DNA of 41,985 nt, taken from positions 1 to 41,985 of IMG/VR virus record IMGVR_UViG_2548876869_000013; one strand, written 5' to 3'. The translations under genes were made by a program, and so were the position numbers. How positions within the stretch are numbered: position 1 is the stretch's first letter; each line of letters begins with the position of its first letter. Below, piece by piece: positions 25,418 to 34,560 of the stretch. The stretch comes from a virus (taxonomy: Duplodnaviria; Heunggongvirae; Uroviricota; Caudoviricetes). The notes below the pieces were generated by a model. The model was given only the letters and a program-made list of their open reading frames with translations. It was not told the origin of the DNA and made no database searches.

Positions 25418-25592
25418 TCAATCTGTCCTCGCGCTCTTTGCGCTTGTAGTACCAGTTGATGCCAAATGTGCCGACAGTACAAAGAATACCAATGATGACA
25501 GCCCAGTCATTCAGGGAGAGAATGCCACCCATCGCAGTCAGTCCTCCGAAGCTGTAACTGAACCATTCTCTGATTTTGTCCATACGGTACAT
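25389..25592 (-). CDS. Pinholin (S21-like holin), dual-start motif
   Basis: 67 aa; MYRMDK dual start; two TM segments; overlaps endolysin start. Confidence 0.8.
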
Positions 25593-25705
25593 GCTCTACC
25601 CCTTCATTGAGGGGATTTGCTCTATTTAATTAGGAATAAGGTCGATTACTGATAGAACAAATCCAGGCTACTGTGTTTAGTAATCAGATTTGTTCGTGAC
25701 CGATA

Positions 25706-25749
25706 TGCACGGGCAAAACGGCAGGAGGTTGTTAGCGCGACCTCCTGCC
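25706..25749 (-). terminator. Candidate late-leader hairpin/terminator
   Basis: 10-bp stem GGCAGGAGGT/ACCTCCTGCC; on minus strand followed by GTTTTGCCC (weak U-run). Confidence 0.35.
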
Positions 25750-25837
25750 ACCCGCTTTCACGAAGGTCATGTGTAGAAGGCCGCAGCATAACTATCACTG
25801 ATGAATTCAGGACAGCCAGTGGCTACGGCTCAGTTTG

Positions 25838-25970
25838 GGTTGTGGCGGCCGGAATCGAACCGGCTTCCATCGGTGCGCTGCCGATTGCAGTACGCGCGGC
25901 GGTCAGCTACATGACTAGTATTTTCACTGTCGCCTATCTGCTAGCTCGCCATTGAGCTTCACCACAACGA
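25838..25970 (-). other. tRNA-like element (non-canonical; possible tRNA relic)
   Basis: Minus strand has acceptor-like 5' UGUGGUG, D-arm-like AGCUCAAUGGCGAGCU, perfect T-arm GCCGG-UUCGAUU-CCGGC and complementary 3' CGCCACA; no canonical anticodon arm and ~45 nt too long. Confidence 0.3.
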
Positions 25971-26039
25971 TAAGAGCACTGCGCGGCACCTTTCACCAAT
26001 TCCGCGAGGTCTGCGGGTTCAATGCTCTTACCTGTTGTG
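25963..26039. repeat. Hairpin repeat element, copy B
   Basis: Arms CACAACGATAAGAGCACT (25963-25980) and AATGCTCTTACCTGTTGTG (26021-26039), identical to copy A arms; arms form a 6+8 bp stem with internal loop. Confidence 0.7.
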
Positions 26040-26222
26040 TGCCCATTATTAATCACACCGGGCCAGTGCGCCGAATTTGTTTACAAGGAGTCGGAAGACC
26101 TTGCTGACTTACAGGCTATTACGCCGCCATCAGAACAACATCATCGTTTGCATTTATCTTTGTGGTCAGTTTCTAAAAACCCGCAAAGTCGCCAACTCTG
26201 ACGAAAACTATCGTTGTGCTGC

Positions 26223-26290
26223 CACAACGATAAGAGCACTCGGTGCATTTAAGCCAAGCCCCATAAGGGAGAATGCTCTTACCTGTTGTG
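26223..26290. repeat. Hairpin repeat element, copy A
   Basis: Same 18-nt and 19-nt arms as copy B, interior sequence different. Confidence 0.7.
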
Positions 26291-26382
26291 CAAACAAAAA
26301 AAGCCACCGTTGCAACTTAAGAGTCACTAACGGCAGCTTATGTGAATAGTGTTGCTCATTTGCTCAATGATGTCAACACGTT
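26291..26382 (-). promoter_or_regulatory. Candidate late promoter pR'/qut region and promoter-proximal hairpin
   Basis: Minus strand TTGACA ~20 nt after Q stop; downstream hairpin followed by TTTTTTT (plus 26291-26335). Exact -10 not resolved. Confidence 0.35.
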
Positions 26383-33996: not shown

Positions 33997-34560
33997 ACTG
34001 AGTTTAACCAAACAGGAGGTGCCGTAATGGTGCACTAACGCGGTTAGACCGCAGCCGAAAGGCAATGCAGCAGTAATGATGCTGCCCCGAGTCGCGTAAT
34101 GGCGAGCAGGTTTAGCAGACCGATGTGAGGGTAAATAAGGGAACATGCTCCGGAAAGGCAGCGCGAATGCCAGACGCGCACCGGTTATCAGCGGCTAATA
34201 AGCGACAGAGACTCAAGGGCATGAGCGCGCTCACTGCGAGAGTGTGAGTCAAAGAGTAGTTGGCTTTGGGGTGACGTGAAGTGCAGCTGCACGACGGCAA
34301 CCGGAAGATAAGCACCCGGCGCGTCACCGCCAAAGTCAATTCCATAGGCGTTATGCAGCCGCCACCATATTCAAGAAAGCTGCACAAGAGGTAGGAGGAT
34401 TTATGTGAATACTTACATTCAATTGAGAGATTAATTAAATAGAACTGATCGAGCAGAGTCCATAAAGGCTCATAAATGCTCTTCCATCCCCGTCTAATTG
34501 GCGGGGAAGGAAACCACTTTGTAATAAAAAAATTCCAAAGTTGTTTCATCGGAGGTCAAC

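Follow-up and report, generated by a model that had tools for sequence, protein, structure and literature searches.

The late leader of a lambdoid prophage encodes a conserved RNA that resembles the coding half of a transfer-messenger RNA (tmRNA). The sequence analysed, referred to below as the window, is a stretch of 41,985 nucleotides (nt) from a virus of the Caudoviricetes (positions 1 to 41,985 of IMG/VR record IMGVR_UViG_2548876869_000013). It is a lambdoid prophage, and E. coli 55989 contains a prophage that matches it at 100% identity. The RNA, here termed the tmRNA-like core, occupies ~170 nt (26041..26212) of the 790-nt spacer between the genes for the Q-family antiterminator and the holin (25593-26382). 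All features of the spacer are given on the minus strand, which is the late-gene strand. The core retains a D-loop-like motif, the sequence AUAAAU followed by a GCA resume codon, a 10-codon ssrA-type tag, a hairpin containing the stop codon and a pseudoknot that follows it. On balance, comparison with related sequences suggests that the core is probably a phage-lineage derivative of the coding part of a permuted tmRNA, expressed late, processed like transfer RNAs (tRNAs) and serving as a tag template.

The D-loop-like motif GAUAGUUUUCGU (26212-26201) is located at the 5' end of the core and is followed by a 5' hairpin (26188-26159). AUAAAU (26157-26152) directly precedes the tag frame GCA AAC GAU GAU GUU GUU CUG AUG GCG GCG (26151-26122), which begins with the GCA resume codon, encodes ANDDVVLMAA and ends at a UAA stop (26121-26119). 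The stop codon lies within a hairpin (26133-26104), and an H-type pseudoknot (26103-26071) is found immediately downstream. A GCCC/GGGC stem with a conserved 15-nt loop, GGUGUGAUUAAUAAU (26063-26041), completes the core. A scan of the leader against Rfam returned five matches, of which the three with E <= 0.01 are all to tmRNA families; the other two, to ctRNA_p42d and snoU85, are weak. The matches to tmRNA_permuted (RF04321, 26.3 bits) and beta_tmRNA (RF01850, 17.4 bits) fall on 26248-26081, i.e., on the tag region. An nhmmer profile built from 14 diverse family members, the window included, matches the window at 26213-26025 with E = 4e-53. The window is assigned to the core family based on this match, the 10-codon tag, the pseudoknot and the GGUGUGAUUAAUAAU-type loop stem. 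A reading of the window made from its letters and open reading frames only (the sequence-only reading) had described the spacer as free of cargo open reading frames. This is correct. At the RNA level, however, an absence of cargo would be wrong, because a tag template (ANDDVVLMAA and stop) lies between the two hairpins described below.

Two pattern scans of IMG/VR and the nhmmer profile yielded 57 family loci (the loci and contigs compared here are numbered with the prefix L), and tag statistics and the structure alignment were based on 32 sequences with 32 distinct tag sequences. Every tag is 10 codons long and followed by a stop codon (32/32; UAA in 30, UGA in 1 and UAG in 1). The tags conform to the pattern A-N-[DE]-x-x-[MVFIY]-[LM]-[AMV]-[AV]-A. 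Codon 1 is Ala in all 32 (GCA or GCU), codon 2 is Asn in 31 and codon 3 is Asp or Glu. Codons 4 and 5 are unconstrained, codon 6 is only M, V, F, I or Y, and codon 7 is Leu or Met. Codon 10 is again Ala in 32/32, with all four Ala codons in use (15/10/6/1). Positions -8 to -1 relative to the resume codon read AGAUAAAU in 19 of the 32 sequences, and the variants retain U-A-A at -5 to -3; the -8 to -1 sequence is identical to the consensus of beta_tmRNA and tmRNA_permuted. The E. coli tmRNA has U-A at -5/-4 upstream of its resume codon. The pattern of the frame is that of tmRNA tags, and these statistics show the frame to be under selection. An ordinary small open reading frame was considered and rejected: the AUG within AAAUGC opens a different, non-conserved frame and is missing in Kuttervirus, and no conserved start codon occurs in the tag frame of the 32 sequences. 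L033 (5427-5700) and L079 contain a more distantly related core, in which the pseudoknot is the same and the tag has 13 codons (ANDDSFEVARLAA). ARAGORN does not call a tmRNA there, and the copy in L033 begins 5 nt past the CCA of a tRNA-Arg(UCU).

The structure of the core is conserved along with its frame. In the 32-sequence alignment, 86.9% of cells are paired, and 88 cells are changed on both sides, where shuffles give 31±5 and slid controls 14-30. Pairing reaches 99% in the stop-codon hairpin, in which G-C and A-U alternate (19:13). Three covarying pairs were identified in pseudoknot stem 1. Pseudoknot stem 2, which joins the hairpin loop to a downstream strand, occurs as CCGA/UCGG, CCAG/CUGG, CCAA/UUGG, CUAG/CUAG and GUCG/CGAC, and all four pairs of the stem under the GGUGUGAUUAAUAAU loop covary (4/4). 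The alpha_tmRNA model aligns the corresponding pseudoknot in phage Sf16. The motifs GAUAGUUUUCGU and GGUGUGAUUAAUAAU are nearly invariant across the family.

By blastn, 727 phage records contain relatives of the core, and the groups they come from have no other sequence in common. Carriers include T1-like siphoviruses (Sf11, C1, Akira), N4-like phages of the G7C type (IME11, PhAPEC7, Pollock), FelixO1 and Mooglevirus, Vi01-like Kuttervirus, P1/P7, and phages of Klebsiella, Erwinia and Serratia. In none of the 727 records is the core annotated as an RNA. It is also encoded in 137 of 5426 complete E. coli genomes, including O26:H11 enterohaemorrhagic E. coli (EHEC), where RefSeq has no feature for it, and RefSeq likewise annotates no feature in the Q-holin spacer of E. 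coli 55989. Thus, an element of model phages and of prophages in pathogenic E. coli lacks any RefSeq feature. A scan of genome contigs with a 14-mer of the conserved loop gave 120 chance matches, none of them with a core. GenBank records ON470589.1 and ON470594.1 label a homologous non-coding stretch as 'polyubiquitin-A', and several phages of the Bas collection label the core region as 'hypothetical protein'; both are likely mis-annotations.

At every locus opened, the core lies inside or adjoining tRNA genes. The unit in Akira consists of a promoter-like site (TTGACA-17-TAGATT), the core, a hairpin, a tRNA-like RNA, a tRNA-Met and a terminator-like site, and in Sf16 a promoter-like site is directly 5' of the core. 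The siting beside phage tRNA-Arg(UCU) and other tRNAs suggests that the cassettes act against translational stalling or host tRNA attack. Unusual tRNA-like RNAs were also noted near cores. FelixO1 (L007, ~1025-1106; also L098 and L108) has, directly after the hairpin of the element, an 82-nt RNA that resembles tRNA-Arg(UCU) and lacks a D-arm. Its C1-G72, G2-C71, G3·U70, A73 and CCA are alanine identity marks on an Arg anticodon; it is unannotated and is not called by ARAGORN. In Kuttervirus SS9 (L009, ~955-1195), two tRNA-like RNAs of 104 and 128 nt with T-arms and CCA ends lie 3' of the core, and ARAGORN calls neither.

The core of the window is bracketed by two long hairpins, A and B, which are separate copies of a conserved long stem that flanks the modules of the cassette. 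The 5' arm CACAACAGGTAAGAGCATT is exact at 26290-26272 and 26039-26021, and the 3' arm AGTGCTCTTATCGTTGTGG is exact at 26240-26222 and 25980-25962. With <=3 mismatches allowed, only 0.02 (5' arm) and 0.00 (3' arm) chance matches are expected across the 42-kb window. A 3-mismatch match to the 5' arm at 34383-34401 on the plus strand is probably due to chance (~0.02 expected). Hairpin A (26222..26290) has a 31-nt interior, CUCCCUUAUGGGGCUUGGCUUAAAUGCACCG (26271-26241), and hairpin B (25962..26039) has a different 40-nt interior, GAACCCGCAGACCUCGCGGAAUUGGUGAAAGGUGCCGCGC. The exact 19-nt arms and differing interiors agree with what the sequence-only reading had reported. In addition, a small local hairpin, GUUGUG-GCAG-CACAAC with flanking pairs (26208..26233; an inverted repeat of 11 pairs, flagged as terminator-like), overlaps the end of the 3' arm of hairpin A and reaches the U-rich start of the core. 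It was found in a subset of relatives only (L029, L031 and L049).

From the relatives we collected 153 distinct hairpins, with interiors of 11-213 nt. The stem is local and conserved as 6 + 12-13 base pairs (bp), and the interior is hypervariable; some interiors contain a D-arm-like hairpin and a T-arm. The stem covaries between lineages (the window versus Sf16, L094, L131 and L193): CACAAC/GUUGUG and UAAGAGCA/UGCUCUUA in the window correspond to AACAUU/AAUGUU and AAAGAGCA/UGCUCUUU in Sf16. The usual layout in contigs of temperate phages is terminator, hairpin, core, hairpin and body, and the two hairpins of the window are therefore the norm rather than a private duplication. The interior of hairpin A is of a 'canonical' type that is almost unchanged from FelixO1 and Sf16 to MK54 and is present in L006, L007, L011 and L200. 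This interior (26241-26271) contains GGGGCU, as at the 5' end of tmRNA, preceded by UCC-C-UUAU, as well as UAAAUGCA, a sequence that recurs unchanged as the resume-codon context of the core. The interior may represent a vestigial acceptor end. Rfam contains no known family that matches the hairpins. In P7 (L012, 2059-2174), a partial match to STnc100, a Salmonella small RNA family (43 bits; gathering threshold 47), directly follows another copy of the 3' arm.

The last module of the cassette is a tRNA-like RNA (134 nt as named; 25839..25968, followed by CC at 25838-25837), which was recognized from its fold (z = -2.6), a local match to the tmRNA family RF00023 and its homologues. The RF00023 match (20.2 bits) covers the T-arm and the 3' strand. 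A 9-bp acceptor-like stem, GUUGUGGUG/CGCCACAAC, closes the RNA, and its 5' strand overlaps the 3' arm of hairpin B. Also present are a D-arm (AGCUC-AAUGGC-GAGCU), a canonical T-arm (GCCGG-UUCGAUU-CCGGC, 25864-25848), a 5-bp 'variable-arm' hairpin and, in place of an anticodon arm, an irregular arm of 56 nt. The sequence-only reading had correctly recognized this element by its T-arm, D-arm, complementary acceptor strands and missing anticodon arm (25968-25839). It is not a tRNA: it lacks an anticodon arm, is not called by ARAGORN and has no match to RF00005 at E <= 10. Homologues in HK75, S.Inf 5-2, Akira and, in diverged form, L050 keep the fold; 96% of cells are paired, and the five pairs with changes in both strands are located in the T-stem, in the variable arm and at the base of the long arm. 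In L187, the same acceptor stem encloses a different interior and the RNA ends with CGCCACA-A-CCA. The sequence-only reading had held that its interpretation would fail if the arms were a common intergenic repeat with no transcript and the tRNA-like segment random; the arms are not generic, and the segment covaries.

The long arm of the tRNA-like RNA, CAGAUAG..GCGAC in the window and AAUAGUUUUGCGG in L050, resembles the 5' end of the core. This resemblance suggests that the tRNA-like body and the core may descend from one tmRNA-like gene via duplication and deletion. A chimeric query against 50,697 phage records detected no ancestral form that joins acceptor, D-arm, core and T-arm contiguously. 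A long-range acceptor pairing of GUUGUGGCAGC (26228-26218) with GCCGCCACAAC (25849-25839) is possible over 10/11 pairs, and similar 7-bp matches occur in Kuttervirus loci; we do not rely on these pairings because ~0.5 such matches per 500 nt are expected by chance. In many phages, e.g., CUS-3 (L001, 1621-1838), L006, L029, L050, L104, L191 and L083, the tRNA-like slot is filled by a second type of body, GUUGUGGUGAAUGCGCAGGCUGAUGCG...CCACAAC, of 130-210 nt. Its T-arm-like hairpin has a 9-nt loop, and Rfam gives no match for it.

If the core is indeed a late tag template, Q-modified RNA polymerase proceeding from pR' through tR' would transcribe the cassette at a high level late in infection. 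The modules could then be excised from the leader of the late messenger RNA (mRNA) by tRNA-processing enzymes (RNase P and RNase E, with 3' trimming), and cuts might fall within the hairpins or at them; the model is the tRNA-Asn and tRNA-Thr genes that occupy the same slot in other phages. The released RNA would template a tag of the form A-N-D/E-x-x-x-L-A/M-A/V-A on the nascent chains of stalled ribosomes. Its partner may be the tRNA-like RNA of its own cassette or the SmpB/tmRNA machinery of the host.

A stronger proposal, which we advance tentatively and consider possible rather than probable, is that enterobacterial phages (P1, FelixO1-, Vi01-, N4- and T1-like phages and the lambdoid prophages of EHEC O26) encode a new form of tmRNA gene, a free-standing tag half of ~170-230 nt that acts in trans. 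Such an RNA would be bounded by a promoter or by tRNA processing, without an enclosing tRNA-like domain, and would work with a separate tRNA-like RNA of the cassette or capture ribosomes that host tmRNA·SmpB has already entered. In this way, the tag on proteins that stall late in infection would be set by the phage. So far, tmRNA has been seen as one RNA or as two paired pieces in which the tRNA-like part brings the template into the ribosome. A widespread template-only phage RNA would imply an unrecognised way of delivering or exploiting a tag template, and would show routine phage interference with ribosome rescue. According to older observations, lambda-P22 hybrids, P22 and Mu depend on host tmRNA, and a phage tag RNA would offer a handle on this ssrA dependence.

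Several findings weigh against the derivation of the core from a tmRNA that still functions as a tag template. No canonical tRNA-like domain encloses the tag, and the T-arm-bearing RNA of the window lies wholly 3' of it. The region 5' of the tag forms a nested hairpin, CUUUG..GGUUU-UUAG-AAACU..CAAAG, with weak covariation, and is not a PK1-type pseudoknot; in Sf16, FelixO1, L049 and L094 unrelated A/U-rich sequence takes its place. Rfam scores are far under the gathering thresholds (26.3 vs 47 for RF04321, 20.2 vs 47 for RF00023 and 17.4 vs 84 for RF01850). ARAGORN calls no tRNA or tmRNA anywhere in the window and no tmRNA in any tested enterobacterial-phage locus. Its calls over the window and at least 30 related loci are limited to ordinary tRNAs, apart from four permuted tmRNAs of canonical form, each in an unrelated viral contig. 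The ARAGORN check proposed by the sequence-only reading gave no call in the window, and Rfam gave nothing at gathering in the leader. No single tRNA-like partner is common to all members, and at loci of the Sf16 and FelixO1 types the element is limited to core and hairpin, with a tRNA-Arg, ordinary or odd, coming next. The tRNA-like RNA of the window has U3-A70 rather than G3·U70, and its A73 is followed by CCC rather than CCA.

The hairpins add to these difficulties. The order of stem, replaceable segment, stem, D-loop-like motif and tag parallels that of a permuted tmRNA gene. Of the 61 core-flanking hairpins, 50 have G·U as the third pair from the interior and, with the termini placed at the interior, the wobble G falls on the would-be 5' strand, as in G3·U70. 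Across all 153 hairpins, this pair varies (G·U in 74, A·C in 43, A-U in 20 and G-C in 10), no conserved A follows the stem and CCA is absent. For these reasons, and because no T-arm precedes the stem, we treat the parallel as a lead only. A one-piece tmRNA in which the 3' arm upstream of the core pairs with the 5' arm downstream of it would position G3·U70 correctly; it was rejected as a selected structure because diverged arms cross-pair at only 7-9/12 pairs, whereas the local hairpins keep 11-12/12.

The main rival to a tag template is a decoy or inhibitor, which we consider somewhat unlikely. The core would mimic the parts of tmRNA that contact SmpB, S1 or the ribosome and, itself uncharged, would titrate or redirect host trans-translation late in infection; the adjacent tRNA-like RNAs may act likewise. 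The lack of a canonical chargeable tRNA-like domain is consistent with this role, and the near-invariance of GAUAGUUUUCGU and GGUGUGAUUAAUAAU fits binding of a conserved host partner. There is also a precedent in mycobacteriophage DS6A, whose sequence encodes little beyond the tRNA-like domain, and a similar molecule was reported to be a strong tmRNA inhibitor (PMC4131195, PMC11915505). A decoy needs no translatable frame, yet the length of the frame, its stop codon and its amino-acid pattern are kept while the codons vary.

Less probable still is that the cassette provides only processing or stability signals. The hairpins and the tRNA-like fold would then be cis elements of the late leader (RNase III/E/P sites, 3'-end protectors or insulators) that shape the late mRNA and release neighbouring tRNAs, and the tag would have no function. 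The hairpins are interrupted helices of 19-24 bp with a conserved wobble and mismatch site, like the stems recognized by nucleases. They bracket tRNA genes in P7, where no partner lies near the first 5' arm and the genes for tRNA-Asn and tRNA-Thr come after that arm, and HK75 and CUS-3 retain hairpin B without the core. A role of the hairpins in RNA processing is possible, and this explanation may hold for the hairpins alone. It does not account for the 10-codon frame, the pseudoknot or the promoter-like site that the element has of its own in virulent phages, which lack the leader.

The leader itself is a mosaic. Its spacing of 790 nt, which the sequence-only reading had contrasted with a few hundred in lambda, exceeds that of relatives, the aligned leaders of HK75, CUS-3 and BTP1 being 509, 596 and 464 nt. 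In an alignment of the window with HK75, CUS-3, S.Inf 5-2 and BTP1, the tR' terminator and the distal 240 nt are common to all. The window alone has an extra block of 251 nt, which comprises hairpin A and ~180 nt including the tag-encoding core. From tR' to the distal leader, the cassette of the window is ordered hairpin A, tmRNA-like core, hairpin B and tRNA-like RNA. Hairpin B is the sole copy in HK75, CUS-3 and S.Inf 5-2; it is accompanied by the same tRNA-like RNA as in the window in HK75 and S.Inf 5-2, and by a different 210-nt body in CUS-3. In BTP1, SPN9CC, P7 and many P22-like phages, the corresponding slot contains tRNA-Asn and tRNA-Thr.

This variability of the slot is what would be expected if the cassette were evolutionary debris, i.e., decaying fragments of permuted-tmRNA and tRNA genes, shuffled at shared flanks and carried passively in a permissive non-coding position. 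The 'boundary sequences' annotated on both flanks in CUS-3, the degenerate tRNA-like domain and the CAGAUAG..GCGAC stretch, with its likeness to the core 5' end as after duplication and deletion, point the same way. We nevertheless judge this explanation improbable. Debris would gather frameshifts and broken helices, and the frame is intact and compensatory changes persist in phage groups that share no other sequence. The sequence-only reading had listed tRNA relics and late-expressed structured RNAs among its options. The direction was right: the modules are structured and conserved RNAs such as occur in phage tRNA clusters. The tag template was missed.

Miniature mobile inverted-repeat elements, in which each hairpin would be a DNA element with variable cargo that inserts into phage intergenic regions, were also proposed by the sequence-only reading and are the least credible explanation: the arms are identical within a genome, the interiors are hypervariable (11-213 nt) and many copies occur over unrelated phages, but no target-site duplications (in the course of an unsystematic inspection) and no associated transposase or integrase were seen, the orientation relative to the flanking RNA genes is constant, and compensatory arm changes keep RNA pairing, with G·U and A·C at one fixed position that are meaningful in RNA only. 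A site of the integron attC type was likewise rejected, given the fixed orientation and the RNA-type pairing. The cores of attC sites read RYYYAAC...GTTRRRY, and ACACAAC and GTTGTGG agree with this consensus at 6/7 and 5/7 positions.

The cassette is flanked by ordinary features of a late leader. The Q-family antiterminator gene is at 26871-26383 and the holin gene at 25592-25389, both on the minus strand. A TTGACA hexamer that resembles a -35 element was read from the sequence at 26376-26371, upstream of the tR'-type intrinsic terminator of the late promoter (26296..26339; AAGCUGCCGUUAGUGACUCUUAAGUUGCAACGGUGGC then U7), which aligns base for base with the HK75 feature 'terminator Tr''. No evidence was found for an antitermination signal, another of the options of the sequence-only reading; the tR' terminator is located upstream of the cassette. 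On the other side lies the conserved distal leader (25593..25838), which is outside the cassette and is shared with HK75, CUS-3 ('bsq3 boundary sequence') and BTP1. It contains a perfect 10-bp hairpin, GGCAGGAGGU...ACCUCCUGCC, followed by GUUUUG (25749-25720), whose stem varies among the aligned phages and which may act as a weak terminator or in processing. A further hairpin, CCCCUCAAUGAAGGGG (25614-25599), adjoins the holin gene on its upstream side and resembles the lambda structure that sets the holin/antiholin ratio. The N-terminus of the holin, MYRM, has two in-frame Met codons, like the dual start of lambda S (25592-25625).

In its position, the cassette corresponds to the modules delimited by the boundary sequences (bsq) of CUS-3. 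It sits exactly between bsq4, which runs from the end of Q up to the hairpin, and bsq3, which corresponds to the conserved distal leader, as would fit module exchange via recombination in conserved flanks. The bsq features are the conserved flanks rather than the hairpin arms or the intervening RNAs, and the concept concerns DNA mosaicism and is silent on RNA function. The late-leader tRNA genes of lambdoid, Stx and P22-like phages (e.g., the tRNA-Asn and tRNA-Thr of BTP1, SPN9CC and P7) and the tRNA clusters of virulent phages are a second point of comparison. The slot is the same, the expected route of expression and processing is the same, and the element adjoins real tRNAs in Akira, MK54, Sf16, FelixO1, P1/P7 and PhAPEC7. 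The modules of the window differ from phage tRNA genes in that they have no anticodon arm and no tRNA call by ARAGORN or Rfam.

Phage tmRNA genes and the DS6A gene, which has the tRNA-like domain only, are other cases of phage-borne parts of trans-translation, DS6A being an instance of half a tmRNA in a phage (PMC4131195, PMC11915505). The known phage cases are either canonical genes that ARAGORN can detect or the tRNA-like half only, whereas here the conserved half is the one that encodes the tag. The 2014 paper on the tmRNA database names only mycobacteriophages and Bacillus phage G as phage carriers (PMC4131195). The searchable text of the 2025 update reports 79 phage sequences, obtained with ARAGORN/Rfind-type tools, and does not mention any enterobacterial phage (PMC11915505). 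The paper on STGO-35-1, a phage that carries the element, reports a tRNA-Met (ARAGORN) only. No description of the element or of the tag peptides was found in the searchable literature, the scope of which excludes subscription journals, and within it the element is undescribed.

The one-piece tmRNA (ssrA, RF00023) has several of the same parts. Both the E. coli tag, ANDENYALAA, and the phage tag open with A-N-D, place a hydrophobic or aromatic residue at position 6 and close with small residues, and the stop codon is likewise in a helix-5-like hairpin. The tRNA-like RNA of the window has a 3' region, GGAA-GCCGG-UUCGAUU-CCGGC, that is tmRNA-like. Unlike in the one-piece molecule, the tag part of the window is 5' of the tRNA-like part rather than inserted into it, there is one pseudoknot rather than four, and the core is only ~170 nt long.

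The circularly permuted, two-piece tmRNAs of Alpha- and Betaproteobacteria and cyanobacteria (RF04321, RF01849-51) share more with the core. Both have AUAAAU-GCA as the resume context and an ssrA-type tag that ends L-A/M-A/V-A; in both, the stop codon is part of a hairpin and an H-type pseudoknot comes after it. The upstream D-loop-like GUUUCGAC/GUUUUCGUC motif and a location among tRNA genes are also common to them. The acceptor stem and intervening segment of the permuted genes are comparable to the phage stem, which is closed by a variable and dispensable segment. Unlike in permuted tmRNA, the phage stem has no upstream unit of T-arm, acceptor strand and CCA, no GGGG 5' acceptor strand is joined to the D-loop-like motif and G3·U70 is not invariant. 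Also unlike permuted tmRNA, a nested hairpin stands for PK1, scores are under Rfam gathering and ARAGORN is silent. The core thus has an Ala-resume tag frame, the sequence upstream of the resume codon and a stop codon in a helix followed by a pseudoknot; PK1, recognition by Rfam and ARAGORN and an enclosing tRNA-like domain are missing. Because of the missing tRNA-like domain, we do not class the element as a tmRNA gene.

Canonical permuted tmRNAs, called by both ARAGORN and Rfam (123-130 bits), were identified in viral contigs L023, L051, L054 and L116. The intervening segment of the one in L054 (2600-2700) has a T-arm-like hairpin inside a flanking stem, GCACAUCU/AGAUGUGC, like the interiors of the T-arm-type phage hairpins. 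All four share the 14-mer AUAAAUGCAAACGA and the style of the tag (ANDERFLMAA, ANDNAFLMAA and others) with the phage core, and it is therefore the coding piece of a permuted tmRNA that the core resembles most.

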